A stretch of 58,354 nt of DNA, the filler included, from Dugesia japonica (taxonomy: Eukaryota), in assembly GCA_001938525.1 (NCBI GenBank). It is 5 parts of 5 records of this genome, joined end to end, with 100 filler letters (N's around TTAATTAATTAA, not from the genome) between each part and the next. Parts side by side here need not be neighbours in the genome. Positions count along the whole stretch, not along the records: positions 21,393 to 35,003 come from MQRL01607073.1; positions 35,104 to 43,625 come from MQRL01603156.1; positions 43,726 to 58,354 come from MQRL01586641.1; 2 more parts are not named here. One strand, given 5' to 3'. A program made the position numbers and the translations under genes. Below the pieces are notes generated by a model that was not told where the DNA came from, made no database searches, and saw only the letters and a list, made by a program, of their open reading frames with translations. Within the stretch, counting starts at the first letter, position 1; the number at the start of each line of letters is the position of its first letter. Positions 8,287-57,113 of this stretch are shown here, piece after piece.

Positions 8287-8386
8287 NNNNNNNNNNNNNN
8301 NNNNNNNNNNNNNNNNNNNNNNNNNNNNNNTTAATTAATTAANNNNNNNNNNNNNNNNNNNNNNNNNNNNNNNNNNNNNNNNNNNN
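8287..8386. other. Artificial scaffold-joining linker (44N-TTAATTAATTAA-44N)
   Basis: Exactly 100 nt with a six-frame stop 12-mer in the centre; four identical copies in the window. Confidence 0.95.
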
Positions 8387-10767: not shown

Positions 10768-12619
10768 AATTAAATTTTCTGAATTTTAAATTAAATTAAA
10801 ACAATTTAATAAATACAAAAATAATATTATTATTGTAATCTTTAATAAAATAAGATATAATTATAAAATTAAATTGATAAAATAAGTAAAGATTTCAAAT
10901 TTCAGTAATAAAATTTCAATTCAAGGAAATTTTTGAAATTAGAAAAAATTCAGTTAAAGTTATTTTTATATAAAACACATTATTGGATGTTACAACAAAA
11001 AATTTTAAAAGCTACAAAATTTTCAAAATTGGTGAGAATTTCTTAAATTCCAATCAGTCCTAATTTTATTATCGAAAATTTTAATTTTTTAAGTTTCATC
11101 AGAAATCTTTTTGACAAATATTCAAAACAATGTAATTTAAAATACAATTTTATTCCACATAAATTAAATTGAATTTTGTATAATTCAGTAAAAACTAAAA
11201 AAAACAAATACATTTTATTATTTTGATCGAAGTTTTTTCTTTATTTTAATGAAATCTCAAATGAGATCAATAGTCCAACAATTATTCTCACAACAAATGT
11301 AATTATAAAACTCAGTAAAAACTCATCAAACTTCCAAACAGTGAGGATCTTGGTTTGAGCATTCTTAAATAAGTTTAAAAGTGTAACAAATATTAAATTT
11401 AGCTAATTAATAAAGCCAGAATCAAAAGTTTGGAAAATTAAACAAAATGAGAATAAGAAATCAGCATGTAAAAGAATTTGATGATTTTGGAAAATTGCGA
11501 ATAAAAGTTTAAATGAGAAGTTGCGAACAATAGATGATTTTAAAGAATTATATTTAAGATATTTGGTTGGTGTAGGACCGGCGTAAGCTGGATTTCAAAT
11601 CCAGCGTCGCAGGAGGGCGCCTTGTCATCAATTATATTATTACATTATTTGCATAAATCAAAATAAAACATTTAAAATTTAGACAGAGAAACTCTTTGAA
11701 ATTAATTAAAGTTACAATTTAAACAGTTAAAAAATAAGATAATTATGTTCGGAAAGAACCCAACAAATTCATTTACAATATATGCCAATAACTTGAATTA
11801 CCAAACAAAATCGTTGAAACTACGAATAAGCTTCTTTATTAAAAAAATTGGACAGAAAACAATTTTTAAAAAATAAATACGCAGATTGCTTTACGGTTTG
11901 ATTAATACAGAAAGAATTCGCAAAATTTATGATAAATTTAATCAATTTGTAAAAGAAAATGGAATTGCCTGTGAAATTAGCTCAACAAATTAAAACGAGA
12001 TATTCAAAAAGAGTATAAATACTCGCGAAAAAATAAATAAATAAAAAATTTAGAACAAAAGTAGACAATAAGAGAACAATTGTTGGCAAAAGACGTAAAA
12101 TTATAAATCAAAAACGACTTCCAATAATCGTGCAACGAGAGAATAATCATTGTGGAGATCTAATTTTTGACGATTGGAAGCAAGATACACAATCGTACTT
12201 TCCAATTCTCAGTGCAAGACAATACAATTATCAAACAATACTTAGTCAAAATTACAGTTTTTTCAACATTAGTTAATATATAAGAAAAAAAGGAAATATT
12301 ATCCGAAAAATCCCATAAAACCAAAAGTTCCGAGAAAATAAAGTGTTTTACAATGTGATCAATACTAGGCAGTAAATTGGGATAAACAGTTCTTACACAA
12401 TCGATAAAGAAATCACTAACAGAGAAAAAAATTTAAAACTATCCAAGCACATTTCACAATTAAACGATCTTTAGATGTATGTTCATTGAAAATTGAAATG
12501 CAAGTTATGGATTTTACGTGTATTTCGCTTTCAATATAAAGATCAAAAAAGAAGGAATGTTGTGTGTATATTATTTTGAATGTGCGTTTTTGAGTTGAAT
12601 TATTTAATTTTTATCATCA

Positions 12620-20487: not shown

Positions 20488-20760
20488 TTACCTATTTTGT
20501 TTATATACTGTGATACCATTAGGGTTGAATATATCTGTTATCACCCTATAATCATCTGGACATTGTTGTATAAAGTCAAGAAATAGATATCCATGTGGTT
20601 TTTCTGTTGGATCTTGGAATGATTCAATAAGAAATTGTCTGTTATTTGGATATGCTTGTCTTGGTAGAAAATCAACAACTGTCTGATCTCTAGAATCTTT
20701 GAATAAAACCAAATATGGCTCGTTTAAATATTGGATAATGCTAGTTTTTTATTTTTATTT
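20488..20760 (-). pseudogene. Polinton A32/FtsK-like packaging ATPase, C-terminal fragment
   Basis: LNEPYLVLFKDSRDQ...RQAYP...FLIESFQDPTEKPHGYLFLDF...DDYRVITDIF matches the conserved C-terminus. Walker A/B are deleted. Confidence 0.85.
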
Positions 20761-23314: not shown

Positions 23315-26300
23315 TCAAATAATGCTATTTAGGCTGTCATAATTCGGTGGGTATCCAGGAAGAATTTCAATAATATTACGAAAGACCGGGCCTTTATTAG
23401 TTTTAACATAAATTTTACACATATCTGGCAAACGTAATAAAAACATATTTAGGTCATTCATATCTCTACAATAAAAGCCAACTGCACAATTAGGATCCAA
23501 CTGAGAACACGGCATGATTAAAGGTCTTTTGCAGTGAAATGTCTAAAAAGAAATTTACAATTTGAAAACAATTAACACAAAAAAAGTTAAAATTAATATT
23601 TATAACTTTTAATATATGATTAAGCTTACTTGAACAAAAAATAATTATGTTCATCAAGAGTAACAGAAAAAAATTAATAGTGTAAATTTATTGTTTCAAA
23701 AATATTTTTATAGTTTTTTTTATAAAATAATGCTATAAAATTTGTAAGATCGAATTGTCAGTGAAATTTATAAATATTTAATATATATAAATTTATTCAC
23801 TGATTTATGCAATTATAATGCCAAATGACTTTATAATAATACTTAATATTAGTTTTTAACAGCACTTGCAAAAATTCTTGGATCAATTCACTAATGTTAG
23901 GCAATATAAAAATGAGAAGCTAGTCATTTTGCATAGTTATTTGAATTCTGTTAATGGCATTTATTTCGCAGTTGATTTGAAGTGTTATTTAATAATTATA
24001 TATAATAAAGAATAGAAAATGTATTGGATCAATAGACAGCTCGTTTTCAATTGACGTATTCTGATAAAATGATTGTGTAACCTTTTAAAGAAATGCAGTT
24101 AATAAATTTTACTCCAAATTTAATTTAATTTATAATTTAAAATTGTGTTCAGTCGACGTGAAATCCATTAAAATATCTTATTAATTAAATGATAAATTAC
24201 ATTCAAAAAATTTAAAATTCTAATTTTGTCATTAAAGAAAGATGCTTTTAATTTTAAAATCAAAATATATTATGATTAAAAGTCATTACATAACCCCCTC
24301 CTAAATCCTCCGGAACATGCGAATGTTGGTTTAAATCAGTCAGTTGAAACGATTTTCCATTTATGAACTTCATAGAAAATCAAATAATTCTTAAAACAAA
24401 AAAGAAAATTCATCTATGGTTTAGAGACANNNNNNNNNNNNNNNNNNNNNNNNNNNNNNNNNNNNNNNNNNNNNNNNNNNNNNNNNNNNNNNNNNNNNNN
24501 NNNNNNNNNNNNNNNNNNNNNNNNNNNNNGAAACCATTTCACAGTGGACATACGCAGTGTGACAATTAAGTTTTAAGACTGGAACTGTAAAATCAAAAGA
24601 AAACAAAATATAAAAATTTTATTGTTTTATTTATTCAAAATAATCCTCCCTGGCTATAATGAATTAGTTGCACTAATGTAACAAAAATCGAAATGCATAT
24701 TCCAGTTTAGGTTGAGGTATTTCTACCAAAACCACGGGTTGAAGCTGCTTGTATGGTTGTAACATCATTAAAATAACACCCTTTTAATTTTATTTTAAGT
24801 TTTTGGAATAAGGAGAAGTCGTAAGGTGCTAAGTCAGACGAATACTGTGGATGATTCAATATACAGACATTATGTTTTGCAAAATATCGAGAAACAATTA
24901 TTGATTTGTGGCTGGGTGCATTATAGTGCAACAAACACCAACTGTTTTCATCGCGATATTCTGAACGAATACGATGAATTCTTGTTCTCAAGCGTTTTAC
25001 AACTTCTAAATAATATTCCAATGTAATTGTTTGTCAAGCTGATGAAAATTATTTGTGGATAATACCCTTACTATCGATTACCATTGTTTTGATTTTTAAT
25101 GGAAATTTTCTTATTTTCTTGGCTTGAGGTGAGTTCTTTGTCTTCCATTTCTCACCTTTTCTTTTAGTTTTTTGGGTATTATTAGAAGCACCATGTTTCA
25201 TCACCTGGAAATTTACGTCATTTCTCGCAGCTGAAATGACGTCTTTGCAATATGCAATTCTACTGGATTTTTGATCGTTGGTTATGGAGCACGGAAGAAA
25301 TTTAGCACAGATTTTTATTTTAAATTTTCAACATGAAAAAAATTGTTCACATGTAAAAATGTCATACTTTTGGATATTGATTTGAATTTTCTATTACTAA
25401 TAGCTAAAGATTCACGCTTGAATATGTATATTTGATTTCATATATAATGTGTCAATTTTAAAACTTAATTGTCACACTGTATATTACCTTGGAATAGTAA
25501 TACTACAATCACGTAGAAAATTGGAATAATTAAAGGTGAATAAATTAGAGCCGAGAAATTATCTTCAAATGAAGAAATGAAATCGGCTTCTCTCAAGTTG
25601 ATAAAGAGTAAATTCCGAAATAACGCCTACCCAAAAAAAGTTATAGACATATTTATCTTTAAATATAAAATTTAATAAATTCAAACAAAAAACTAATACA
25701 GTAATTAAATTACCATTTATTATCGAAAAATGTAGAAATGGTAGAAATATATGCAATAGTAAAAATATATAGGTGAAACATGCAGAACCATCCGAACATA
25801 AATTAAGGAATATGAAGAAAGTGAAGTCTTGAAACACTTTCACAAATAAAATTTCACCAGAACAACATCTATATTCTCTATTTATATTCGGAAGGCATAA
25901 TATAGAAGTCTTCAGTGTTTCTTTTATTCCACTTCCAACAATCTGGCTTTCTTCGAATAGTCCTTAATAAATATGCGATAGTAATTGCAAATTCTCAAAA
26001 AGCTCCTAATCTTCTTAACACCTTTGTATTTACCGAAGTTCTTTGTTGTTTCTATTTTAGTTGGGTCTGTGCGGATACAGTCCTTACTAATGACGTTGAA
26101 AGAAATAATGTTATTCATAGAAAGAACTTGGAGCTGCCGTGATACCAAATGGATTTCTAAAAAAAATATTCTCCCTACTTGGTATAAAACGCCGCTCTTT
26201 CCTGAGAATCGTCACTGAAACTTAGTAGTATGAATTTCCAAAGTCTATTGAGCTAAAATATTGACAACAGTCCAAAGCATTGAGCATTTCAATCATATTA

Positions 26301-30640: not shown

Positions 30641-30699
30641 AAACAATTATCATTAAGTTAAAGGCTTCAATTAAAATATATTCATTTAAAGTCAAATTC

Positions 30700-31090
30700 C
30701 TTTAAAGTCAATTCCTGACGAAGACAAAATCGAAATATAGAATTATTATCAAAAATCACAAAACAAATGTTGATCGAAGCTTTTATTTTAATGAATTCTG
30801 AAAAACGATCAACGGTTACGCCCAACAATTATTCTCGCAATAATTGCAATTGCAAAACAATTCGATTAAAATGTTGTTTTTTTATTTATTACTTTCTAGC
30901 TATTAGTATTTCAAATTTTCGACTCTTGTCTTCTTCAAAATTAACCTAATCATCCTGAAGAAGACAGAAGTCTGAAATTTGAAATAATATATTAATATAA
31001 AAAAACAACATTTTGATCGAAGCTATTAATTAAGTGAAATCTCAAATGCGATCAATGGTTAATTCCAACAATTATTCTTACAATGATAGC
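30700..31090. repeat. Direct-inverted-direct cluster of a dispersed repeat (pLTR-like); further copies near 11220-11295, 44290-44385 and 56740-56777
   Basis: Shared core TTTTGATCGAAG...AATGAAATCTCAAATG.GATCAAT...CCAACAATTATTCT. Foldback spanning 30868-31013. Confidence 0.8.
30710..30744 (+). ncRNA. Minimal type-I hammerhead ribozyme motif (Penelope pLTR/retrozyme type)
   Basis: AATTC CTGACGA A GACAAAATC GAAA TA TA GAATT: stem I AATTC/GAATT, core CUGANGA and GAAA, palindromic stem III ATAT, predicted AUA cleavage triplet. Confidence 0.65.
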
Positions 31091-31669
31091 AATTTATAAC
31101 CAATTTTATCAAAAATATTTGGTCCTAATAAATTTTTCCTCAGAACATTTTATCCCACCATCTTTTCTAATATAAGATTTGTTTGCTTCATGAATCAATC
31201 GTTTTTTACATTCTTTATTTCACATTTTTAAATCTGATTCAATAAAAAATAACTTTTATAAAAGATCTTCAAACCTATACAATAAACGAGAAGCAATTAT
31301 TTAAAGGAATTTATCAATAATATAGTTATGCAGAAATTAAAATAAATCAAATTTAATATGGCAGAATTTTATAAATGATATAGAAAAAGATGCAGTGTAT
31401 AGGAATAAGAATGAAGAATTCTTTAGAAATGTATAACTAAGTGATTGGAAGAAAATCAATTGCAATTTGACCTACAAAAATTATAGCAGTCAATTTGGAC
31501 GCCTAGACCATCTTCATTGCTTTTTATTTGAATAAAAAGATTTTACTTTGTTTTATGTGAAAAGATTTTCAGGTCTACAAGCTTGACTTTGCCGTTTTTG
31601 CCTCTGTTTTAAAAAGTCTATATAAAAAAAGACAAAGCAGTTTTTCTAAAAATTTTTATTGGGAATAAT

Positions 31670-32200
31670 TTTCATCATTTTTAAAAACATCCTCCCAAAG
31701 TCAGAGGAAATTTATGAATACCGTCAAAAAAATTTTTTTCTTTGATTTGGTGCCAATTCACTCGTTCAGGCATATTTTGACATCTTTATAATTTTTGAAA
31801 CTGTTCTCTGACAGATGATGTGCCATTGAAAGGAACAAATAGTAATCTGATGGAGCAATATCTGGAGATTATGGCGGGTAAGGTAACACATCCAATTTCA
31901 GCTGTTTTATCGTCTCAGCAACGTGTTTTGCGACATGAGGCCAAGCGTTGTCATTGTGCAATATTACTTTGCCCTGTCTGTCAGCCCATTCTGGTCGTTT
32001 GGAAGTGATTTCTTCATTTAATCACATAAGCTGTTGTTCATAACGGATAGCATTAACTGTTTCACCAGGTTTCAGTAGCACATGGGCATCATATTCCTCC
32101 AACAATACTTGCAATTCATTGTCTTCAAATTTTTTCCGTTGGTGTTCATGGTGCTTATCGTTCAGATAAAAGTTACCGGACAATGTAATTTGTCTATAGT
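31670..32200 (-). mobile_element. mariner transposase remnant (second family), internally deleted
   Basis: KKFEDNELQVLLEE joined to LLKPGETVNAIRYEQQL, HNDNAWPHVA and LPYPP*SPDIAPSDYYLF. Confidence 0.88.
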
Positions 32201-34289
32201 GCGGTTTCTAAATAACATTCCTTAACTTTTTCAAAGATATTTGAAATTGTATTTGAATTCAACGAAAAAAATTATCAATAAAGCGTTATAAAAAGAAAAT
32301 AAATAGAAAATCTAACTGAATATAAATATAAACAATTGATAAATAGCTACAATTTGACAAATTAATAATATTGCTTGAAGATTAAATAAATGGTGTAAAT
32401 AACTGTCCACTTAGTGATGACATTATATTATCTAATGAAATAATAATTGATGTAAAATAAGAGGTTTGGAATGTATAAAGCGATTAAAAAAAATTATTTC
32501 CGCTATATGGATAATATATGACAAAGTAAATGTTATTGTTACACATACACGCATATAATTGGAATTTAAGACTAAATAGAACTTTTCTAAATTTAAATGT
32601 ACCGAATGGCCAAAAAGATAAGAAATGAAAAATCTAAAGCCAATAAGACAATACGTAGAAGCATTTCAAATAATTTAAATTCAAACTAACTTTTTGTAGA
32701 TACCACTTCATCACCCGTTTGTTTAATTTTCATCAAATCGAATATTTCCTAAAACATTAAAAATCAATTCATGTTTCTCACATTTAGAAATCAAAATTGT
32801 TTTAAATTAATTTATCTAGCTTTTTTTTATTCTGTTCAATGAACAAAGTTAGACTAGTTGAAGAGCTGTATTTGTCAATATGAATGGAGTTTTGTAAAGA
32901 ATGGGTTGGATGGGATTAGTAAATATGTGGATTAATAAAACATAAAAGAGCCAACAGATACATTTTAACAAAAGTTGTTTAAATTTAATTTACATAAAAA
33001 ATTAATTAATTATAAAGAGCACTTTGTTAATACGAAGATTGTTTCTAAGTTAAATATAAAACCACAGATATTGAAAGTGTCCATAAAAAGGCAGGACATA
33101 GTTTCATTCCTAAAGTTATTAGATAAAATCGATACCATTAATTCAATAACCATCATATGAAGCAACAAGAAAAAGTAATTTTGAAAGCAAAAACAAAATT
33201 GTACAGAAAACATTCTTATTAGGTAATATAAGTGCTATCTCAATTTTTTTAAATAGGAAGTAGAGTAATATTTCCAAAATTTCCGCTTTGACTTAATTTT
33301 GGATTAAGAAATTTAATGATCACTATAATCATAATATATATAATAAGATCAAGTAACTGGAGATTTGACATCCTTTATATATATCGTTTCTCAAAGTGAG
33401 TCGTACATGAGAAAATTTTCAATCAATATGAAAAACATGTTATTTCGAAATAAGGTAAAATGTCAAGATATGGCTGATATTTTTCAAATGCAATTTAACC
33501 ACGTGTGATTATGATGTACTTATTTTTTAAAATAAAACTGCAGCATTTTAAGTCGCGTGTACTTTGACAATGAGACCTTTGTTAATGAAGAAAGTATTAT
33601 TCTACATTAAATTTATCTGAAAGTTTCAATAGAATTTAAAATAAATAGATATTAATAAAGCATTTAAGTTGTTTTTAATCCAATAACTACAGTATTTGGT
33701 TATTATATTTCAAAGCAATGGCTAAAGTAATTTTTTTTTACAATATCCCATTCAAAAAGATGTAAGCTGTAAAACGGCAAATAAATTAAGGTAAAAAATT
33801 TAACTTAAATTATTAAAAATTTATTTAGCATTAATTTTATTTAAATACTAGCAATAAGAGATCAAAAATGAACTTTTTAAACAAATTCGAATAATTTGTA
33901 AAAATTGAGAAATAATATTATCATATCTAAAGATTTAATGTAATCAGATTTATTTATTTAAAAGCTATATGATGACTAAGGTGATTTAAAAGTAGCAATT
34001 ATAAANNNNAAAAGTAGCAATTATAAAATTAATGAGTATCTATCTATCAAGTTAATCTAACTGTTAAAACACAAAAAAATTTAGCTGAACTAACTAAAAT
34101 ACCAATCGAACAAAACATAAAATATAATTTATATCTAAATTTTCTTTATTTTTAATATATTGACACTCTTCACAAAGTTTTCATAATGCTACTAAAGTAG
34201 CATTTATAATAAAAAAGTAGCAATAAATCGAATTAATGATAACAAATAAATGTGCATCACCTAAAATTTTGCCTTAATAAATTGCGTTG

Positions 34290-35003
34290 CTAATTGACAT
34301 AAAAAGATTTTCATGAACTACGTATAGTTGATCATGAGCAAAAACCATGACTGTTCTTGTGTTTTATTGATAGTCATATCAAAGGTTAATATAACCGGAA
34401 ATTGAAGACGTTTGATTTTGATTACTTGGCTCCAAATTAATTCGAGGAAAGCAAACCTCCTCACTTTTATTACTACTTGCTATAATTTCTCCTATGACAG
34501 TTTCGATGCTAGGTCTTAGCAAGTAATATTGTGCCAATCCTTTCTTCGGGTTAAAATTTCTTAACATGATGAACACACTAAATTTCAATCCGAATATATA
34601 GGTGACATTCCAAATGAACATAGAGCATGAAGAAAATCAATAAGAAATCAATTAATTTATTGAGATCATCGTATACTATTGAATCAAGGCTTATTTGATC
34701 AGCTGTTTCATCTGGTATAAGTTACAACATCTTATAGTTTAACTCCTTAATATCGATTTTTTTTGGTGTTAGGATGACTTTTTTGACAATTTCGGTTATT
34801 CTATCCTCTGTTGTATTTATTTTTTTGTCAAAAATAGAACATGTTTTATCTTCATTTCCACCATCTTTTCCGGTAACTCAATAAAGAATGAACTAAACCT
34901 TATTGAATCATTCCTTGAAAGACAAAAAAACTTTCATCCACATTTTGAAAATGACACTAATTCTTCTCTTTTATAGACGCGAAATTAATGCGATTGACAA
35001 GTA
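34290..35003 (-). mobile_element. Helitron PIF1-like helicase C-terminal remnant
   Basis: ILTPKKIDIKELN, LKFSVFIMLRNFNPKKGL, VCFPRINL and VFAHDQLYVV correspond to Helitron helicase motifs IV-VI. Confidence 0.75.
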
Positions 35004-35103
35004 NNNNNNNNNNNNNNNNNNNNNNNNNNNNNNNNNNNNNNNNNNNNTTAATTAATTAANNNNNNNNNNNNNNNNNNNNNNNNNNNNNNNNNNNNNNNNN
35101 NNN
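35004..35103. other. Artificial scaffold-joining linker
   Basis: 44N-TTAATTAATTAA-44N. Confidence 0.95.
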
Positions 35104-35612
35104 GATGAGATACATCTAACTTAAGTATCTGATGACACCTATACAAATCTGTTTCAATATTAGGTTCATCTAATGATACACCAACTTGGTTTAAAAACTC
35201 TTCCTCTTCTTTAAGGTATTTTTCAAAAATGTTGTCGTCTTCATTGATTCCATCATAATTTTAACCGTTTTCATCCAAAATATTCTTAAAAACTATATCT
35301 TCTTCTTCATTCATTTCTACTAAAGTCTTATTTTCAAAGTTTTTCTCAGTATTAACTATTGATTCATCAATTCCTATTGGTTCATCAATTGCCAATGGTT
35401 CTTGTCTTACTCTCTTAGTTAATGGAGCGCCAATATCAATCTCTTAAAGTAAGTCCCTTAATAATACTCGTTTTTTAATAATGCCGAATTGCTTAATGTG
35501 GTCTACATGCTCCTTATAAAAACTTCCATATTTACCTAGACTTAATATTTTTCATGTTGGACACATGTAGTACTTTTTCCCAGAGAATTTCATACCATAA
35601 TCGTTTTCCATA
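35104..35612 (-). pseudogene. Disrupted acidic protein gene, probably Polinton-borne; runs off the scaffold end
   Basis: MENDYGMKFSGKKYYMCPT*K...EHVDH, then after a frameshift EIDIGAPLTKRVRQEPLAIDEP...EMNEEEDIV...LKEEEEF. Confidence 0.4.
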
Positions 35613-36329
35613 CTCTCATGAAATTCTTCTTTGTGAACAAAACTCACGCAATAATGTTTATATTGTGTGCATTTGCTAAAGAAAATAGCATATTTATATA
35701 AGATAGAACATAAATGAAAACTATTAAAATGTGATATATTACTAATGAAAATTATAAAAAATATTATTATTAAAAATGTGATAATTATTATCAAAATGAA
35801 ATAAAATATAAAAATTATTATTGTTATGTATATTATTATTATGATTATCAAGGGTTAGAAAAAATGATAGTAAAGATCAGAAAATGATGTAAAAGAAAAG
35901 AAAAGGTTAGAAAATGTAATTATCTAATTGAATTTTAATTACATAATTAGATAATTTCTACCTACATAAAGAATTACTAATTGCCATTTATCATCAATTT
36001 TGAAATGATCAGTTATTTTCTTATTACATACACTTCATTTGATTTATTTTAGAATAATCAAACAGATATTTATTCTCAAATACAAAAATCAATCGATAAA
36101 GTTTTGAATGATGTCAAACATAAGAGACAAGAATAAATTGAATCCAATCCAAAAGAAATAGTGGAAGACTTACTAAAAGATAACAAAAAGCTGAGGAATG
36201 ATTTGCAAAAAGTAATCGAAATATCTGTCAAGAGGCTGACCATGATAAGAGAATTAGAAATAAATCAATTTTATATTTAATAAAAGTTTTAATAATATTT
36301 TCGGATTGATTTGACTCTTTTTTATAGCG

Positions 36330-36460
36330 GTTATTATTATTATTAGTAAAATAGTAATTATTATTATTATCAAAATAGCAATTATTTATTATTATCAAAA
36401 TATTATTATTATTATCAAAATATTATTATTATTATCAAAATATTATTATTATTATCATTA
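36330..36460. repeat. 20-bp AT-rich minisatellite (ATTATCAAAATATTATTATT)
   Basis: Exact tandem copies at 36391-36450 with degenerate flanking copies. Confidence 0.8.
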
Positions 36461-36609
36461 TGAAAATACAAATAATTATTATGATAATATATTATCAAAA
36501 ATGTTAAATAAAAACAAATTCTAAGAAAGTTTAAAATAAAATGAATAATTAAAATCTTAAAATAAAATGGAAATTTATTATTATTATGCATTATAAAATA
36601 AATAAAAAA

Positions 36610-36864
36610 CTAACGTTTATCATTTAATCCGACCATTTTCAAAGAGAAATGCATAGAAACAGGTATAGGTTTAACAGCAGCGACCGACATACGATTCACA
36701 GTCATATGAGCATTAGGCATAGTGGTTCTTGTCACATTAGATAAATTCATATTCTACAAATAATAATTCTAAAATTTATAAATAAAATACAATAATTTTA
36801 CTTCATTATTCTTCATCATGTTCATAATAGGTTTAATAGTTGAATTGTTAGTATTACTGTTCAT
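36610..36864 (-). CDS. Spliced 68-aa Met/Asn-rich protein of unknown function; coding exons 36864-36802 and 36753-36610
   Basis: A 48-nt phase-0 intron (36801-36754, GTAAAA..TTTGTAG) and a second 48-nt intron (36913-36866, GTAAG..TTTTAG) immediately before the ATG. Open frame to TAG; AATAAA about 30 nt downstream. Confidence 0.55.
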
Positions 36865-37204
36865 TCTAAAATAGAAAATTATGATATCTTAAAATAAATA
36901 AAAAAAATCTTACGTAAACTATCTCTTCGTTTATTTTTTAAATTGAAAAAGTGTAATCATTTTAAAAGTAATTACTTTTTATTCAAATGTGTGTAAATTA
37001 GTCAGCGTACATACTATTACATAATTATTTACGAATCACTATGTATGTGTATGAATTCAAAATATACAACAACGTAATATTTTTTTAACTAATTTTTATT
37101 TAAAATACCGCAAAGTAATAAGTTAGCTTTACATTAATTGTATTGTTTTTACATTACCAGTAAATAACAACAAATCAATTGAAAACACAATTTTTGACTA
37201 AAAT

Positions 37205-37555
37205 CATTTATTACATACAACAATGTTGATATTTCAACTATAATATGCAATGCAGTCTACAGGTCGTTGTAAATGGATATTGACATTAGATTCTATTGAA
37301 TACAATAGGCTTTAATAATCTTGATTGCTGAGAGATCAATATTGGTGGATAATAAAATCCAAATGGATCGAATACCAGTATATTTTCTGGCTTATTGTAC
37401 ACTGCTAACCAATGTTGTCCACCAAGATTTGATGATTGGGTGCTGACGATTTTGACTTTATTAACTGGCATAATTGGAAGCTTGTCTAATGGATACACAC
37501 CGAGAAAATCTAATCAAAGCTATTTTGTAGCAATTTGATTTATTTGAAATGAACT
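37205..37555 (-). pseudogene. Adenain-like cysteine protease (Polinton PRO), copy 1
   Basis: SFQINQIA..DFLGVYPLDKLP, STQSSNLGGQHWLAVY (His), VFDPFG (Asp), and after a frameshift QYPFTTTCRLHCI (Gln/Cys). Confidence 0.88.
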
Positions 37556-37629
37556 ATTAAAAATAAAATCAAAGTAATAATCAAAACTTACTTTATTTTG
37601 GTTAACTATTTTCATGATATTGAGATTGT

Positions 37630-38948
37630 TTACATTAGTATTGCTCTGTCTTATGTAATTTGTATTTCGTTTTCAAATACTCTGTAGATTATTACATATG
37701 CTGGTGAAGTCAAAGCAGTCCCAAACTTAACATCTAATCTCATATTTCCATGTTGAAGCAATTGACTCTGATTAATATCAAAGTCCGGAGCAAGTACAAA
37801 GGTAAAGAATGGATATTTCTTTCTAAACTCATCAAGTGTTATTCCACAATTTAAATTCTTGTTTAGATATCCCATATTTTTATAATGTATTATAATTATC
37901 ATTTTCAAAATCCTGAACATATGATTTTGATAATTGCTGTTTTTTGAAAGAGTTATGAATTTGACATTGAAATGATCAAAATTCGAGCTGGATGTTTTAG
38001 GTGTCCATTATATCGATTTCTACTATGAAATATTACCAGCAAAAAGTTTGGTAATCAACGATCTCCAAAGATTTGCGCCTTATAAAACGTTGTACTATCT
38101 TTACTGATTGCATAAACTACAATTTCCTTGGTTCTTATTGGATAAACAACATTTTGCTTAGCAAGTCCTATTTGATGACCTGTTAGTACAGATGATTCAA
38201 CTCGAACTCTTCTAACCATCAATTTNNNNNNNAGCAATACAAATTTTGGTTCTTCAGTTACAGATTCTAAACCCATTCTATTGGCTGCTCTCTTCAATCG
38301 AATGTGTACAATAACACCAGGAATAATGTACTTTGGTTGATCCATGAAATCAAGTTGCAAAGAACCGCATAGAGACAACGACTTTGATAATTTAATCGAA
38401 TTTTGTCTGTCATCTTTATCTCCATAACAAATTGCTGCAAGATAAATTTTCTTAGTATCTCCATTATAATTCAAAACAGTTTCAATCATAGCCTTTTGAA
38501 TATAAGTTTCATTATCCCCTTCGATTTTGTTATTNNNNNNNNNNNNNNNNNNNNNNNNNNNNNNNNNNNNNNNNNNNNNNNNNNAATTCAAAACAGTTTC
38601 AATCATAGCCTTTTGAATATAAGTTTCATTATCCCCTTCGATTTTGTTATTGTTGAATCAAAGGACAACATCTTTAAACAGAGTATGAAACATATAGTTG
38701 CTCGGTACTACATCAGATTTTTCACTCAAGTCTTTTCGAATTTTATCAACAACTCTTACTTGTACATACAGTAATGTATCATTCAAATCGAGATAATTAG
38801 TTTGCGATCCATTTATAAAAAACTCTACATCATTTTTACTTTCAGAAATTGAATTCATTGGAAACACATCTTCAAATGATCCATATTCAATAACACCTTG
38901 AGGATTTGGACTATCAAAAATATATAGTTCAGTTTTTCCACAAATCAT
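37630..38948 (-). pseudogene. Polinton major capsid protein (double jelly-roll), copy 1
   Basis: KTELYIF, VEFFING, YLDLNDTLLYVQV, MFHTLFKDV, KAMIETVLNY, LDFMDQPKYIIPGV.VHIRLKR, KLMVRRV and GNMRLDVKF..AL; contains stops and frameshifts. Confidence 0.9.
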
Positions 38949-39318
38949 TTTTCAAATATAGTTCCATTGCCATTCTTTTGTTTATACTTGAATGATTACG
39001 CTTTATTCCAGCACCTTTGAGTTTTGATTCATTTGTAGTGTTGTCTTTTGACATTATTTTCGTTACTTCTGGAGAAGCCATAATATCCTTGAATTCTGTC
39101 ATAGCACTTGTTTTGATAGAAGGTAAAATATTTGCTTTATTATTTATTACATCATGTGCTGTTTTCATGCCAATAGCTCCAATACGTCTAAGAATAGGCA
39201 AAACAAATCTACCTATTGTTTGCAACCATCCAGATCAAAGCTGTTTTTCTACAAAGTATGGTAATTCACCACCAACTTGACTAGTACTATAAGGTTTAAT
39301 AATATCGGGATTAGACAT
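38929..39318 (-). pseudogene. Polinton core/membrane-active virion protein (QxGG site plus amphipathic helix), one in-frame stop
   Basis: MSNPDIIKPYSTSQVGGELPYFVEKQL*SGWLQTIGRFVLPILRRIGAIGMKTAHDV... lies between the minor and major capsid genes, the usual position. Confidence 0.75.
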
Positions 39319-39870
39319 TTACTTTGTAGATGTAGAGGGAAATGAGTTTTTGAGTCTTTAGCAAAGTTGATTAATTCTCCATTATCACTTCGGATATTGA
39401 TTTCCATATTGTTTATTCATGAAGTGGCAACTGGTAAATACATTAGATTCTTGATTATTATCTGATCATCTTCATAATTCTACAACCATACAGATTTCAA
39501 CAAAAAAACATTAACATCACCAACAATTATAGATTCAACAATATTACTATAGATGATCATTTGATGTGGATTAGTGATTAATTTCGGATATTTAACAACA
39601 ATGAATTAAGTGTGGACTATATTTCTATAATCACGAGTATATGTTTGTCTGTCTAATCACAATGATTTTGCCAAAAAATTGTCGAACTTAACACTTTTGA
39701 CTTTTTCCAACCACGAAAATCGGAATGGTTCATAGTTTTTTATAGTAATTTAAAGTATTCAATCCAAATCTTTTGGCATCTTCTAAATTGTCAATTATTA
39801 CAAAATAATTATGATGTTTTAATATGATAGACAATGTTCTTTCATTAATCACCTCAAAACCAACTGCTTA
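39319..39870 (-). pseudogene. Polinton minor capsid protein (penton), 3' part, copy 1
   Basis: HQMIIYSNIVESIIVGDV, LLKSVW, MYLPV, INNMEINIRSDNGELINF and LHL. Confidence 0.8.
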
Positions 39871-40429
39871 CTATTGTGCCCGATTTTTTGTGCTCGTAGT
39901 TTGGAGCTCGATTTTTTTTCTAAGATTTTAAGAATCAAATTTTTTTTGATCCTGAGGTTGTGTGTGTTTGGGTTGCTAATAAGGTTTCTAAAAAGTAGGT
40001 CAAGTTGAGTTTATGTGTATGTGTGTGAAAGAGTGAACTTGGACTCGAGGAAGAGTTGGAAATCTTGGAAATAACTTTTTTTTTAAAGTTTTTTTAGATT
40101 TAGTTGTTGTTGGACAAAGATTTGGTCTATATATTGTCTAAAAGACTTATGATTTGGTATGGATGGTTTGTCCTAGGACTATAGTAGCGCACTGGCACAT
40201 GCGTATGAGTTATCGTGGGGTGTTTGTTTGGGAGGTTGTAGGTTTGTATGTGGTTGATGGATTTGGATGGTTGATGAATTGTAATGTGATGGAGAACATT
40301 TTGAATGTCGATTGTGACTTAATTTCTGATTTTTAGTGCCTGAATTTGATTTGTTGATATTTGCAAGTAGTATAAGTGTGTTAAAAAAATTTCGGGAGGG
40401 GAAGAGTGGTACTGGTGGAAAGAATTAAT

Positions 40430-40880
40430 TATCGGATTTTTTAAGATTTATTTGAAATTTTTCTGCAGGCGGGTGTGACGTAAAAGTGTTTTGAAAATAT
40501 AAAAACAACGCAGATAATATTTTTACTCATGTAATGTGTTATCGACCCACCCCCCACATTACTACTACTGTGTCGTGTGTAAGTTTATTTATTACCTACT
40601 TACTCATTATATAATAACGTGGGGGGCTCGGTAATACATAACGCATAATTGTGTAATTGCGTAAAATATTAAAAAAAAATTAAATAAGTGATAAAATAAC
40701 AAAATTTTCTTGTTTTAATTAACAAATAATTTTTTTTGTTTTAATTAACAAATAATTTTTTTTGTTTTAATTAACAAATAAATTAAGTGGAAAATTCAAA
40801 TTTCAAAAAACTTTTGTCGGAAAATTTAAAGAAAAATATTTTTTGGCGGGAAATTTAAAAATATTTTTTTGGCGGGATAA
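40430..40880. repeat. Two abutting inverted Polinton terminus (TIR)-like sequences
   Basis: ACTACTACT at 40561-40569 (AGTAGTAGT on the minus strand). The minus-strand arm AATGTGGGGGGTGGGTCGATAACACATTAC mirrors the plus-strand arm AACGTGGGGGGCTCGGTAATACATAAC at 40616-40642. Tandem ~26-bp repeats at 40711-40780. Confidence 0.6.
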
Positions 40881-40981
40881 CATTTTAAAAAAACATTTAG
40901 AAACCAAATAAATAACTACCATTGTTTGAGGTTTTGTTCTTGACCAGGATGAATCGAATGAACGGTTTTATGGAAAAAAAA

Positions 40982-43337
40982 TTATATGATACTATAGTGA
41001 CCATATATGGACACTTTTATTTTTGCCTATCCATATGCGCTTATTATCTGTATTTGTTAGCGCTATTTTATTTCACTTAATGCTGTAGATGGTTTTTAGA
41101 TGTTAATCTAAATTGCTCTAATGACGCCAATTTGTTTTCATTATAACGGTCAAGGAAAGACTGGTGAGAAATTTCAGTTTTCTTCAATGTTAAGCCTTTG
41201 GCTCTCATGCTGTTCTTTTCTCTCATCAGACTATAGCATTTCGGCCTAAAAAATACCCATTCTTGATACTTCTTCCATTTATTCTTATCTTTGAATTTCC
41301 CTATAACTGATTGCATACTGTTACTATAAAGGGTATGATCTATATCATAATTCAAAGTATCAAGTAACTGATCTCTCACCATACTTGCTGTTATTTTTAC
41401 TAATTTAATATTTTCTATTTCTAGAAAAGAACTACCTGTATCGCCGGCTACAATATTAATCTTACATTTAAATTCCTTCCTATACTTGTCCAACTCAAGG
41501 TAGTGAAGTTTGTACATTCTCAATTTTGAGAGGTCAAGTACAGTTTGTTCTATGTACCTTGGACGATCTAAGCAAACATCTCCTTATTGAAATGAACAGC
41601 TATCAAATCATCATCAATTTTTGTTGTTTTCTTAAATCTGACTTTTGATGTATATGTAATCAGCTTCTTTGCTAAATTTTATAAGCACAGATTAATCCTG
41701 TTCTTAAGATTTTCTACTGATTTTCCATATAAACTATTATTTAACAGTTTATAATAATTTTTATTCAATTCCGTAACACAATTTGATCTTAGAATTGTGT
41801 TGTTGTTGATATAATTCTCGAAAATTGAAGCCTGGCTGAATTTAACTTCTCGATGAACCTCTGTTACTTGAACTACTAAATTTAAATACATCTGCAGCAA
41901 TTTCCAGTGCACTACGTATTTGTTCTTAGAGTAGTGCGTTAATATTAATTTCTTCACTTTACAACTTGGAGCGCTTCTATGTTCTGCTGCAATTGGTAAA
42001 TCACTCAAATAATCATGAATTTCTGCTGGAATCACTATGTCCACCTTTAGTGTGTATCCATATGGCAATGAATCTAGGTATGCATTCTCACACTCTTCCA
42101 AAACCCTTTCTAATCCATTATTGATTCATTCAAAATTTGCAAAGGGTAACTTTTGACTAAGTGCACAACCATATAGATTATTAATATCTAAATACAACAA
42201 GTCAACATTTTCACTAGTGGCAACATGGTGCTTGTTAACGAATGTTAACCCTCCTCTAATACCTCCTTGAAAATGGTATAAATATCGTTATCTTGAACCA
42301 ATCAATTAGTTTTTCTAATGACATTAACGTAGATGCCCATGACATTCCAGGTATTCCAAAGAAATTCAACGGCTTTAAGTTGTTGTGTGCTAAAGACTTT
42401 GCACAAAATTGCTAGAAAAAATCTGCTAATTAATACACATCCAGCTTTAAATATAACAACATATAGTCCAGCAAATTTGGGAAACTGAATATTTCCCACA
42501 TCGATAATGCTTTCTTATACTTTTCACTACCAACATCCTCCCATTTTGGTGGCATTTGCTTTGTTTCTTCCAGATCCTGTAGGTTCGTAACAAAACTGTA
42601 CGGAAATATCCCCTTTGACTTGGTAATAATCTGATTCTGAAACTCATCTGTAGTCAAAGGTGTCACTTTTAAGGATTTGACAGCAGAGTCTTATGAGAAA
42701 TTTATGAACTGATAACTGTCGATTAATTTAATTGTTGTTTGATTTTGCCGTACAATTAAACATAGAAAATTTTCTGATGTTGTGGGGATGCAGGATATTT
42801 CCCGATTCTTGAACTTGTTAAAACCATACTTGTGGATATGATGAAGATCATATCCTCGTAAATTATGAAAGACCACTGGTAGTTGAATATGGAATTTCCT
42901 ACTTAAATTGCATTGGTTGCATGTTGCTTCTCTATATTTCCCTGTGGAATGGTCATGGTCACGAACGGGATCTCTTATTTCCTTCTTACATAAATAACAA
43001 ATTTTGGCAGCTTTGAATTCTTTATCTTTATCTATTGTTATTATAATTTTACTTTTTCATTTTGTTTCATAATACGGAAACACAATTTTTTCGCTTATTT
43101 TCTCCTAAGCCTTTAAAAAATTTTACACACAGTCATCTCCAATAAACTGTCTGTATTTTGTTTCGTTGGTAAAATTATTAACCAACAACAGACCAGCCAA
43201 AAAAGTTAAATGTTTCTGGAAATGCTTCTATTTTGGAGGTAAAACCAACTCAAAATCCGCAGATATCACAAAAGGTGGTGTTATAGTTTTCGAATAATCC
43301 TTAAAAATCAAGTTCTTCTCCGATGGCATCGTATACA
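40982..43337 (-). pseudogene. Protein-primed DNA polymerase B (pPolB) with endonuclease-VII insertion, copy 1
   Basis: PPFVISADFE, VRDHDHSTGKYR..CNQCN, VVFHNLRGYD, IDSYQF, KGIFPYSFV, YLKLDV, GIRGG, YLDINNLYG, YKLLNNSLYGKSVEN, AGDTGS, RPKCYS, DNKR and YGHY; many frameshifts. Confidence 0.95.
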
Positions 43338-43625
43338 TTGTTCATCAATTATTTCCAAGCTGTTCCAATCAACTGATTCAATATTTATTGCTTCTTGTAC
43401 AATATTTGCTGTTTCTTCTTCCGGTTCCAAATTGATTATTTCTTAGACATATTCAATTAATTCAACAGGTTTACCCTTAATTATTATTTCTTCAACATCA
43501 TCTTCCATAACAATTATTTCAACTGGTTCATTCTTAACTGTTATTTCGTCCATCTTAATTCTCTTATTTACTGATGCTTCATAAAATTCACTATCTATCT
43601 GTCTATCTAATATTGATTTTAATAT

Positions 43626-43725
43626 NNNNNNNNNNNNNNNNNNNNNNNNNNNNNNNNNNNNNNNNNNNNTTAATTAATTAANNNNNNNNNNNNNNNNNNN
43701 NNNNNNNNNNNNNNNNNNNNNNNNN
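43626..43725. other. Artificial scaffold-joining linker
   Basis: 44N-TTAATTAATTAA-44N. Confidence 0.95.
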
Positions 43726-44296
43726 AAAACTTTCAAAATAAGTAAAAAGCGCGACTTTCTTTAGTTTCTTGTTATTTTCTAATATTCAAATATCTATTAA
43801 GATAAATATATTTTTTTGAAATTGTAAAATATTTCTAAAAACGATTTCAATACTTAAGTCCAATAAAATTTCTCCTAATAATTACAATTAATTTACATTT
43901 AGAAATTTAGTTTTTCTTTTCTTCATAAAAATTTCACGTTAAGTTCATTTATACAATTTTGCTTTGAAGAAATTTATGTCTACTATTAAATAGTAATTGT
44001 TTTAAAGTTTTTGCTCTTGCTATTTATCTAATTGAAAAAATTATCTTCATGTTTTATAGAGCAGTGCTCTGCAACCTGGGTGCCATGCTACACATTTGTG
44101 CGTGGGCCGATACAGGTGTGCCCAGATCAAATAAAAAAAATTCTNNNNNNNNNNNNNNNNNNNNNNNNNNNNNNNNNNNNNNNNNNNNNNNNNNNNNNNN
44201 NNNNNNATGTTTAAAAGATGACCCAAAAAACACAAGATAAAAAAACCCCCAAAAATTACACGTTTCAAGAATACATTTTTAAACTTTTCAAAAGTC

Positions 44297-44331
44297 AATT
44301 TCTGACGAAGACAAAGTCGAAATATAGAATT
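44297..44331 (+). ncRNA. Minimal type-I hammerhead ribozyme motif, second copy
   Basis: AATTT CTGACGA A GAC AAA GTC GAAA TA TA GAATT: perfect stem II, and stem I with one U-G pair. Confidence 0.65.
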
Positions 44332-44489
44332 ATTATCTAAAACCAAAAAAAACAAATTTTGATCAAATCTTTTATTTTAATGAATATATAATTTATGTTA
44401 AAAAATAACCCTAAAATTTAACATTTTCAAAAAAATAAATATGTTAAAGATTTACACTAAAAAATACATAATTATAATATAATTAAACA

Positions 44490-44607
44490 TTCAAAATATG
44501 ACCCTAAAAAAACACATGTTTAAAATATGACTCTAAAAAACACATGTTTAAAATATGACCCTAAAAAAACACATGTTTAAAAAATGACCCTAAAAAACAC
44601 ATGTTCA
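44490..44607. repeat. ~28-bp minisatellite (AAAATATGACCCTAAAAAAACACATGTTT)
   Basis: Four tandem copies; related copies flank the gap near 44210. Confidence 0.85.
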
Positions 44608-54476: not shown

Positions 54477-57113
54477 TCAAGGAGCATCATTTCGCAAAAC
54501 GAAGCGTTTAATAGCTTCAAGATCTAAATTTTTATTCCATTCTGATGAATATTTCTGTTTCTTCAAATCAGCTATACTAGCTGATCGGTAATAGTAATAA
54601 GCAACAAGACTAGTGACCATCACAACTAACAAAATAAGAGTCGTCATTACAACAAATTTAACGAAAAACATTCCATCTGTAGAATGATAGTGAAACTCGG
54701 ATTCTATTCGAGAACAGTCTTCATTAGATTCAATTATATTGCTCACTTGATCCTTGATTTTCGAATTCGTCGATATTGATTCTATATGTCGTTCACGTAT
54801 ATCATTGTCAACAAATTTTAATTCAGGTTCAATTTCCTAGATAAAAGAAAATAATATAACAATTACAACAAATAATTTTGTTTTTGTGAATTCTATTTTC
54901 ATTTTATTTTCAAAATTTTAATCTATAAAAAAAGAAATGAAATACTGAAATAACGTAAAATAAACAAAATAAAAGGCTTTTTGAAATAGAAAAGAGAATC
55001 AAGATCAAGAATAAATATTAATGAGATCAAACTTCTACAACAAGGCTTCTTAATCTTTTATACTTCATACACAAAAGTGAATTTATTTTCCTGGTTTCAC
55101 ACTTTTAGACGAAATAATCAAAATAAAATTTACATGTTAGTTTTATCATATCCTAAAATAAAAAAAATGAAAATTTTCAAATTACAATTTTAAAAATTAA
55201 TTTTTTAAAATATATTTATAATTTTTTGTGTAAATAATATTAAGTTATACCTCCCTTTGAGAGGCACACCTCACNNNNNNNNNNNNNNNNNNNNNNNNNN
55301 NNNNNNNNNNNNNNNNNNNNNNNAATTTTTAGAAAGATTTATTATTGATTTAATTAAATTAATTCTACTTCTGATCGCGGAAATAATGTCAGTTATCGCA
55401 CGTGAGTATTTATTGACATTGTGTATTCGTATTTCTTCCTTGATGACTAATCATGATAGGAATAATTTAATGTTTTAAATAAGTTGTTGGGTATTATCAA
55501 ATTTTAAGGAATATAAGTGGATTCAGATTTTAAAATTCTTACTAAAAGCTAACTCAAGTCCTTAATTTTTCAACATAGATTGCTGCGTTTTACAAAGAAT
55601 ACTTTAAAGCCTTTATTAATATCCCAGTCAACATTTTTGGAATAATTAATAATCCACCATTTCGATTGGCTGAAAGCAAAATCATCGAATACTAAAAGAA
55701 AATACTTAAAATTTAATTGAATAATTCTGTTATCTGCCTGAACTATGGTTTATTAAATATGATATTAAATATCATAATTTGGTAGTAGAAGAATTTTTGG
55801 ATTTAAATTGTAAAAAAACATAATTATTAAATTTATATATCAAATGAGCATGAGTATTCAGTTTCTGCTGTATTAGAATATGAGTATTAATTTTTTACAT
55901 TTATTTGTTACCAATAAAAGTCAATTTTCTAACATATTTGTGTGAAAAATACTATTAAGATTTCAATTTTGGACAAAACCTCCAGTAATCAATAGCTCTT
56001 TCAATTTTTGTTGTTTGATTGTAATTAACAAGTTAATACTATTATAATATAATCCGTTTCTATTGACAATGAAAAAAGTTGATTACTAATCATTTTTTTA
56101 TAGAAAAAACCATAATAATTACCTTTCTTTTGCTTAAATTACAATACTTTGAAAATAAAAATGGTCCTGCAAATTATAAATTGATGGCGAATCTTGATTT
56201 TATTTCAAGTTAAATTTAAAATAAAATATTACGTGATTATATTTGACAATAGTGATAATACTAAAATATCCAACAAAAACTTGTTTTTAATTATCTTTGA
56301 GAAGACGGACTTTTCTAAGTTTGTAAAATGATAAATTTTCAATACAGCTAATATTGTACTCGGGTTTTACGCGTGCACTGTACTTTTTTGTGAAATTATG
56401 AATGTTTTTTTGTCTAAAGTTATGCTTTTTATTATAAAATAATGATTAAATGAATTGTTTCTTTTCTTTTACTGTTTGTTTAAATAAAATGTGTGTATAA
56501 AGCACATGCGAATTATGAATTTACATTATGCTTTATTCATCTTATTTTAACTGATATTTAAAATATAGAACCAATTCCATCATTTTATGATATCCATACG
56601 ATATCCATTTTTGGTTAAGTTGCCGTGGAATGTATCTATCGCGTAAAAACATAATTAGATGTAGATAAAAATTAATTTAAATTGGCCATGTCAATACTAT
56701 CAATAATTAAAAAAAAATATAAAATAAGGAAAACGATATTTTGATGGAAGCTTTAAATCTAATGAAATCTCAAATACNNNNNNNNNNNNNNNNNNNNNNN
56801 NNNNNNNNNNNNNNNNNNNNNNNNNNNNNNNNNNNNNNNNNNNNNNNNNNNNNNNNNNATTAATTTTATATTTGATTATATAAATTTTCGAAATCATAAA
56901 CAACTTCATCATAATTTTCGAGATTTGAAAATATTGATTGAACTTCTAAAGATTCGACAGGTTCTATGATTTCCTCAATTTGATTTTGCTCGAAATTTTC
57001 CAGTTCTGATTCGTTAATAGACCTTTCTTTCAAAGAATCACCTTCTAAACTTACAGTTTCATAAGACAATGGATTTATTGATGCTTCGTCTTCTGATCTA
57101 CTTTTTTGAAAAT
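54477..57113 (-). CDS. Partial host gene: single-pass membrane protein with acidic extramembrane region; last exon 54836-54477, probable upstream exon from 57113
   Basis: Both blocks begin after polypyrimidine-CTAG acceptors. The last exon encodes a hydrophobic stretch FVVMTTLILLVVMVTSLVAYYYY followed by basic residues. The upstream exon's donor is uncertain (adjacent N gap). Confidence 0.5.

Follow-up and report, generated by a model that had tools for sequence, protein, structure and literature searches.

Minimal type-I hammerhead motifs are an already known class, and thousands of them have been reported from animals. The motifs that Cervera & de la Pena 2014 (PMC4209133) describe in metazoan Penelope-like elements (PLEs) have one base between positions 9 and 10.1, a G10.1-C11.1 pair, a palindrome at 15.1-16.1, a short helix I, AU-rich flanks, and high variability. 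They are mostly single and dispersed, with pairs on opposite strands, and the table of that paper also includes a UAUA at the cut and a U3 core. PLE pseudo-LTRs (pLTRs) that hold the first 12 to 22 codons of the ORF, inverted head-to-head pLTRs, and solo pLTRs have been described as well (PMC3846280, PMC8557442). For the anole element, internal initiation and the use of uncut RNA have been demonstrated in vitro (PMC11167929).

We analyzed a stretch of 58,354 nucleotides from Dugesia japonica (the window), in which the initial annotation had reported four copies of a hammerhead motif. All four were located at the coordinates it gave. Each motif sits inside a repeat ~155 bp long. The repeat begins some 11 nt ahead of the core and extends to roughly codon 19 of a PLE ORF. 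The features are listed below, with residues numbered on P0001, an intact PLE protein of 843 amino acids (aa).

30704..30858, plus strand: copy c1, a solo pseudo-LTR (nhmmer E 2.6e-36), laid out as a leader of ~11 nt, the hammerhead, a 5' UTR of ~64 nt, and ORF codons 1-19
30710..30744, plus strand: minimal type-I hammerhead of c1, with a 5-bp helix I, an extra A after A9, a private stem II mismatch at 30729, a palindromic ATAT helix III, and a predicted cut after 30739
30803..30859, plus strand: ORF start of c1, the first 19 PLE codons, start codon decayed
30826-30846: hairpin of c1, 8 bp (z -1.39), just ahead of the family 3' end
30650..30680, minus strand: possible short inverted remnant upstream of c1, weak (nhmmer E 0.24)
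44291..44385, plus strand: copy c2, 5' end as in c1, 3'-truncated
44297-44331, plus strand: hammerhead of c2, the best preserved, stem II GAC-AAA-GTC, predicted cut after 44326
30861..30947, minus strand: copy c3, inverted and decayed, with a U3 core, an AATT helix III, and a 2-bp helix I (E 4e-10)
30951..31101, plus strand: copy c4, decayed, ATG intact at 31046, hammerhead without a palindromic helix III
11195..11311, plus strand: copy c5, 5'-truncated, no hammerhead, 3' end common to the family (E 1.4e-21)
56720..56777, plus strand: copy c6, 5'-truncated, no hammerhead, entering an N gap (E 8e-11)
24360..24551, plus strand: PLE remnant, RT core (aa 525-546 and 607-613, N gap between)
25481..25840, plus strand: PLE remnant, RT thumb, linker, and GIY-YIG (aa 614-698 and 767-794)

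The window motifs share the core of the published PLE hammerheads, and the extra A between 9 and 10.1 is present in c1, c2, and c3. Their stem II, with 3 bp and a 3-nt loop, is the smallest when set against the listed rows of PMC4209133, where the closest is that of C. briggsae (3 bp and a 5-nt loop). The exact window motif is absent from the rows compared (supplement 2 part 2), and a search of the published papers found no description of the repeat family. The window repeat is an additional PLE-hammerhead family of the type described by Cervera & de la Pena.

The link to a PLE comes from the protein. A Penelope RT fragment had been placed at 25484-25745; we confirmed it and found it larger than claimed, covering 24360-24425, 24531-24551, and 25481-25840, the last with stops, a frameshift, and a deletion. 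The broken RT at 25481-25660 and P0001 share 73% identity (E 3.9e-18). The single ORF of P0001 encodes RVT_1 (476-573) and then GIY-YIG (753-794; 21.6 bits, just below the 22.6 cut-off), the same order as in the window remnant. Pfam did not recognize the decayed PLE pieces of the window; the homolog search did find them. In a tblastn search, P0001 residues 2-20 matched the ORF start of c1 (68%, E 7e-4). A six-frame scan of the window with the first 19 residues ranked c1, c4, and c5 as the top three (scores 74, 45, and 43), against a mean of 30.6 and a maximum of 45 in 200 shuffles, so that the c4 and c5 scores taken singly lie inside the shuffled range. Because the repeat encodes the first 19 residues of P0001, we identify it as a PLE pseudo-LTR.

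Related loci point the same way. There are 14 related PLE loci in all, and eight of them include the ORF end and its flank. Five of these eight (L001, L002, L004, L006, and L012) carry the core on the sense strand past the stop; no core was detected at the ORF ends of L009, L010, and L011 (flanks of 263, 568, and 69 nt). In L001 and L002 the core lies 29 to 30 nt past the stop, an ATG follows 55 to 56 nt past the cut, and the common sequence stops about 25 nt farther on. In the window family, represented intact by the protein P0001, stop codon, hammerhead, and ATG would follow in this order on one molecule. The repeat is thus very probably the pLTR of an endonuclease-bearing PLE, made up of the hammerhead and the first ~19 ORF codons, and likely spread to thousands of sites by the element's own RT and GIY-YIG endonuclease. 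The initial annotation had proposed a PLE pLTR or a retrozyme, and its first half stands: the repeat encodes the N terminus of the PLE family to which the RT remnant belongs, and relatives carry the motif 3' of the ORF.

By eye, P0001 is nearest to the PNL2_SM row of Fig. S2 in Craig et al. 2021 (PMC8557442), from the Nematis group of C-terminal EN+ PLEs. In both, RT precedes GIY-YIG, the GIY-YIG core contains a CxxC, the Cys linker is short (CxC...C), and the flanking residues are similar; only about half of the residues match by eye. A Nematis placement is therefore a lead from motifs compared by eye. P0001 has a DKT, a WK motif, a CxCx5C linker, and, at RT4(B), a canonical GLAMGN, and it retains the CxxC and His of the CCHH motif. 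The Hydra clade of the same paper likewise has DKT, a WK motif, a CxCx5C linker, elements of <3 kb, and a hammerhead near the 3' end. However, CCHH (CxxC and His) and canonical RT4(B) are absent or divergent there. Since P0001 retains both, the Hydra-clade membership suggested by DKT and CxCx5C was ruled out. In Hydra hammerheads, helix III also spans 4 bp and carries a loop, unlike in the window motifs. A search of 1.84 billion proteins returned only relatives without names.

The claim of a dispersed repeat family was borne out. In run X1, 28,717 contig pieces align to the repeat stretch. The contigs contain thousands of scattered copies that end sharply on both sides, and head-to-head inversions like that at 30861-31101 recur among them. 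Loose ends in X1 concentrate at 30704 (432) and 30857 (240), with a flank agreement of 0.45 to 0.49, and the ends at 30704 and ~30857 appear in both contigs and reads. The low agreement at 30704 could alternatively reflect indels in a common AT-rich upstream stretch. We dropped a division into two distinct 3' ends (30852 and 30857), which is likely an alignment effect of base 30853, private to c1 (98% T elsewhere). Joints between opposite strands, from 30704 to 30760-30783, recur in X1. Within the window, c3 stands head-to-head with c4 and abuts the 3' end of c1. Together with c5, c6, and the recurrent joints, c3/c4 resemble the 5'-truncated and inverted head-to-head copies of C-terminal EN+ PLEs. 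Copies c1 and c2 are 91% alike (89% in a separate comparison over 95 nt), c3 and c4 are 79% alike, and identity between these types is 59 to 65%, so the family has at least two sequence types. Copy c2 sits within a 28-bp tandem repeat of unrelated sequence. Because no empty site turned up for this copy, no target duplication could be defined.

The fixed ends suggest that the copies derive from an uncut 5' leader by internal initiation. We suggest, tentatively and at somewhat less than even chance, that the majority of copies arose as run-off cDNAs of the PLE mRNA, made from its uncut 5' leader, with ~30704 as the transcription start and ~30857 as the internal start of reverse transcription. 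Under the pLTR reading itself, reverse transcription probably starts within the ORF near codon 19, which sets the 3' end, and cDNA synthesis runs back through the uncut hammerhead. It halts early, as in c5 and c6, or at one constant position ~11 nt ahead of the core, the probable 5' terminus of the RNA. An inverted partner, as in c3/c4, would arise by template switching or self-priming. A close parallel is PAc, the Poseidon element of Anolis (Frangieh et al. 2024, PMC11167929), which likewise carries its hammerhead where the pLTR meets the ORF, has genomic 3' ends within the ORF start beside a stem-loop, and shows no RNA-seq ends at the cut site. However, the PAc ORF begins inside stem II, whereas that of the window family begins 64 nt past the cut, as read from sequence alone. 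If the leader origin is correct, internal initiation, which has so far been seen only in vitro, would be documented in this genome by tens of thousands of naturally made copies, and these would also form a natural collection of variants of a hammerhead that is among the smallest known. In any case, the family is very abundant, has sharp ends, and has an intact protein relative, and is therefore suited to tests of PLE transcription and reverse-transcription start sites and of hammerhead cutting in vivo.

The same repeat could instead be an independent SINE-like family, derived from a pLTR but with its own master copies and mobilized in trans by the PLE, which would differ only in the source RNA. 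This would fit the very high copy number, the two sharp ends, and the multiple sequence types. However, the unit has no non-PLE content, the PLE RNA itself explains both ends, and neither an internal Pol III promoter nor a tail was seen by eye. We regard this origin as rather unlikely, at perhaps one chance in a few.

The second half of the earlier proposal, a retrozyme family with circular RNAs, fared worse. Non-LTR retrozymes (PMC7229834; bioRxiv 10.64898/2026.07.22.740005) are likewise short, noncoding, of PLE origin, and equipped with a type-I hammerhead, and they are defined by tandem hammerhead units and circular RNAs. Here, a tandem-monomer transcript of a nonautonomous unit would be cut by the hammerhead, circularized, and reinserted by the PLE machinery. 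The short unit with fixed ends and a type-I hammerhead would suit this, animal retrozymes reportedly derive from PLE pLTRs and may leave many monomers (bioRxiv 10.64898/2026.07.22.740005), and in one X1 contig 31055 is connected to 30704 through intervening letters, a joint whose kind is not given. However, the window has no tandem hammerhead units, and no joint from 3' end to 5' end is among the 15 best supported of 111. The unit ends differ from the cut site and enclose a whole hammerhead, and the helices are minimal compared with the canonical type of retrozymes (PMC7229834). RNA reads continue into unlike flanks in 95 to 96% of cases. No pile-up of RNA starts or ends was found at the cut site in X21 or X22, a weak test in oligo-dT/cDNA libraries, and the RNA joints listed include no go-back junction of a circle, which oligo-dT libraries would miss. 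With neither tandem monomers, circle junctions, nor cut-site ends, a retrozyme with circular RNAs is unsupported, and we consider it very unlikely. Strand read counts at the core, from a stretch that holds no control gene, were 225 versus 384 in X22 and 14 versus 4 in X21. The window copies are likely inert, decaying insertions that are carried along passively in host transcripts.

With a strict type-I descriptor, which requires the core, stem II, helix III, and a helix I of at least 4 bp, the motif search gave two matches in the window, at 30715-30739 and 44302-44326, which sets the predicted cuts of c1 and c2; 100 dinucleotide shuffles gave a mean of 0.09 matches and a maximum of 1. A looser pattern from the published consensus gave three matches, the third being c3 with its core at 30938 (200 block shuffles: mean 0.06, maximum 1). 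The core CUGANGA ... GAAA ... UH is exact in c1 and c2, has U3 in c3, and fails in c4; the c4 motif at 30955 fits neither descriptor, and its helix I, like that of c3, is just 2 bp. Helix I is kept in only two of the four copies. Stem II is GAC/GTC in three of the four. The exception is 30729, which is A in c1; 95% of the X1 contig depth and 518 of 595 X22 reads have G there, and the mismatch is private decay of c1, with G in 87 to 95% elsewhere. Position 17 changes from A to C in about 30%, and the cut site allows both. Stem III had been described as always palindromic, which is true of c1 and c2 (ATAT) and c3 (AATT) and not of c4. This ATAT-to-AATT change, in one decayed copy, is the only two-sided change in the window.

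The stems had also been said to covary. This was not seen for stem II among the four window copies, and it was seen across PLE families. In an alignment of seven motifs from about three to four independent lineages, with ends chosen by hand and c4 and L012 excluded, 84.3% of cells were paired, versus 64.9% after shuffling. Covariation was 0.638 versus 0.213, with 0 of 500 shuffles as high and slid controls at or below 0.196. The G10.1-C11.1 pair is GC in all seven, helix III is paired in 100% of cells, and related loci with the motif 3' of the ORF show two-sided pair changes. No motif folds as a full hammerhead as a monomer, and the active dimer fold is not favored (+3.8 kcal/mol for c2, +4.8 kcal/mol for c1). 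The motifs are likely self-cutting RNA; in a master element we would predict weak cutting after position 17, either in a dimer formed via the ATAT palindrome or with the PLE protein assisting. A chance likeness, in which an AT-rich repeat happens to hold the core letters, would fit the lack of an Rfam hammerhead match in the window (E up to 10), the lack of a stable fold, and the two broken copies, but it is extremely improbable, with 0.06 to 0.09 matches expected per window, the motif at the same place in the five related loci, and agreement with the published consensus down to the extra base, G10.1-C11.1, and the palindrome.

The word CTCGCA, ahead of the 3' end, is common to c1 and L004/L006; we dropped it as a meaningful link, as the hairpins there fold differently. 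The exact motif pattern had no matches in viral contigs. The best Rfam match in the window, MIR837 (35.4 bits versus a cut-off of 117), is the c3/c4 inverted repeat, which folds into a 97-nt hairpin at 30901-30997 (-32.9 kcal/mol, z -7.56). This hairpin should be annotated as an inverted insertion and not as a microRNA precursor.

The repeat family has six members and one weak remnant in the window, as found by BLAST and by a copy profile that was built from the same six members it then searched. The copies are listed with the matches to P0001, an intact Penelope-like element (PLE) protein.

Repeat copies and P0001 matches in the window
30704..30858 (+), copy c1
44291..44385 (+), copy c2
30861..30947 (-), copy c3
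30951..31101 (+), copy c4
11195..11311 (+), copy c5
56720..56777 (+), copy c6
24360-24425, 24531-24551, 25481-25733 and 25766-25840, P0001 matches forming the PLE remnant
30806-30862, match to P0001 residues 2-20

Homology extends from about 11 nt upstream of the hammerhead core to about 120 nt past the cut. Copies c1 and c2 start at the identical base, and their flanks are unrelated. The hammerhead is absent from c5 and c6, and the 3' end of c5 is common to the family. Copies c3 and c4 lie head to head, forming a 97-nt hairpin (z -7.56). A 16-bp tandem repeat of about 2.9 copies (30666-30716) takes in the c1 5' end, which may have been restarted or duplicated. A 28-bp tandem repeat stands on both sides of c2 (44207-44290 and 44490-44609).

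The four hammerhead motifs of the initial annotation are present where it placed them, and the observation is real. A strict type-I descriptor matched twice in the window, in c1 (30715-30739) and c2 (44302-44326), against a mean of 0.09 in 100 dinucleotide shuffles. The published minimal consensus also matched c3 on the minus strand (mean of 0.06 in 200 shuffles). The c4 motif matched neither pattern, and helix I is down to 2 bp in c3 and c4. An Rfam search of the window returned no hammerhead, and no single window motif folded as a full hammerhead. The active dimer fold is predicted at +3.8 to +4.8 kcal/mol, an unfavourable energy that agrees with the weak activity described for minimal PLE hammerheads (PMC4209133). 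The repeat hammerhead shows the testable features that Cervera & de la Pena 2014 describe there, and its stem II and loop are the smallest among the table rows listed (PMC4209133). By analogy, it would work like those hammerheads, with cleavage at the predicted site.

The annotation had also correctly recognised the PLE link. Querying with 25451-25672 (stops as X) gave one protein among 20 candidates, P0001 (73%, E 3.9e-18), which has 843 aa with RT and GIY-YIG domains; the nearby remnant is its relative. The three best six-frame window matches to its first 19 residues were c1 (74), c4 (45) and c5 (43), of which c1 alone exceeds chance singly (shuffles: mean 30.6, maximum 45). Because all three are repeat copies, the repeat is a pseudo-LTR (pLTR) with the ORF start. 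This is the layout described for rotifer PLEs, together with inverted head-to-head and solo pLTRs (PMC3846280).

Relatives of the PLE protein are encoded at 14 loci (23-45% identity). The ORF end with flank was available in 8 of the 14, and a core followed the stop on the sense strand in five of these eight; in the other three, no core was found after the stop. In L001 and L002, the core lies 29-30 nt past the stop and an ATG 55-56 nt beyond the cut, and their common sequence stops about 25 nt after that ATG. L004 and L006 carry a U3-A8 core, of a kind already in print. At L012:2069-2105, 160 nt past the ORF stop, is a variant that has an extra U ahead of GAAA and whose palindromic helix III is longer. 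A TG(A/G)TCGAA-like word about 20-30 nt past the cut (window ~30770-30778, L001 ~2419-2427, L002 ~2078-2086) may be a promoter or binding element or may be a chance likeness.

We aligned seven motifs (c1-c3, L001, L002, L004 and L006; c4 and L012 excluded). Paired cells reached 84.3% versus 64.9% when shuffled, and covariation was 0.638 versus 0.213 (slid controls, at most 0.196). Because the analyst set the ends and the motifs represent three or four independent lineages only, this pairing supports, and does not prove, selection.

Four runs were aligned to 30560-31200 at 80% likeness. X1 contributed 28,717 contig pieces and X7 4,641, nearly all of them within 30692-30867 and the corresponding part of c4. 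This implies thousands of family copies, although summed depth is not a copy number. Loose ends piled up before 30704 (432 X1 contigs, 234 reads from RNA run X22) and after 30857 (240 and 215), and the flanks there agreed at 0.45-0.49. Joints between opposite strands, running from 30704 to 30760-30783, recurred, the one to 30770 in 18 X1 contigs, 8 X7 contigs and 12 X22 reads. Therefore, the c3/c4 inversion pattern is general in the family.

Among 40 of 138 variant rows, two variants fell inside the c1 hammerhead. At 30729, G makes up 95% of X1 depth; the c1 mismatch is therefore private decay, not covariation. The claim of covarying stems was overstated: it was not borne out among the window copies, and covariation holds across PLE families. 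At position 17, C makes up about 30%, a change that the hammerhead cut-site rule permits.

RNA reads on the repeat came from both strands and numbered 2,701 of 13.6 million in X22 and 78 of 10.5 million in X21. Of these reads, 95-96% continued into dissimilar sequence, which is what copies within host transcripts would give. Neither library, both poor at cut ends, showed an RNA start or end pile-up on the repeat. The proposed retrozyme or circle output was likewise overstated: the best 15 of 111 joints included no 3'-end-to-5'-end joint, in libraries poor at showing circles, and on the data seen the repeat lacks the tandem arrangement of non-LTR retrozymes.

The repeat belongs to an already known class; a search of the literature, Repbase aside, found no published account of this particular family. 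The planarian PLE has two marks of the Hydra clade, but its CCHH is retained and its RT4(B) is canonical, and we rejected membership. By eye, the nearest row is PNL2_SM, placed with Nematis, an affinity that we take as a lead only. Hydra-like DKT and CxCx5C with intact CCHH occur in the PLE proteins P0001-P0004, P0016-P0018, P0024, P0029, P0032 and P0033; judged from sequence, this group falls between Nematis and Hydra as these have been described in print.

The analysis establishes that the repeat is of PLE origin and dispersed, that it has sharp ends and inversions, and that its motif fits the consensus. In the copying scheme that we propose, the PLE protein would nick AT-rich DNA, and reverse transcription would begin within the ORF near codon 19, beside an 8-bp hairpin (z -1.39). 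The cDNA would be copied back through the uncut predicted hammerhead, and the fixed 5' end would correspond to the start of the RNA. This last step is the least certain, because flank agreement might equally be reduced by indels in an AT-rich stretch common to the copies upstream. The scheme is modelled on in vitro results for the anole element, which include internal initiation, uncut RNA as the main template and a hammerhead that needs the PLE protein (PMC11167929).

The window DNA is AT-rich and eukaryotic (GC 23-34%), and its host exons (metallophosphatase, Peptidase C54, B-box protein) are interspersed with decayed mobile elements. It is divided at 8287, 21293, 35004 and 43626 by four 100-base linkers of one sequence (44 N, six-frame stop, 44 N), which are likely joins between contigs, and distances across them may not be real. 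The PLE remnant lies in the same segment as the 30.7-31.1 kb cluster; two linkers separate the 44.3-kb copy from that segment, and little can be read from its distance to the other copies. A mariner-type element (~24553-25480; terminal inverted repeats matching 26/29, TA on its flanks) interrupts the remnant precisely at the junction of P0001 residues 613 and 614. Where the remnant ends, 25927-26211 (-) is presumably a Gypsy-like RT fragment, and ~29400-30450 (+), upstream of c1, we take to be a MULE-like transposase remnant, both by eye and without Pfam support. Decayed Polinton/Maverick-like pieces (20491-20748, 37289-39234, 41080-43056 and 50738-51690) include a protein-primed polymerase B (PF03175), an adenain-type protease (PF00770) and one ORF without a Pfam match in two inverted copies, 81-87% alike, which we assume to be capsid-like.
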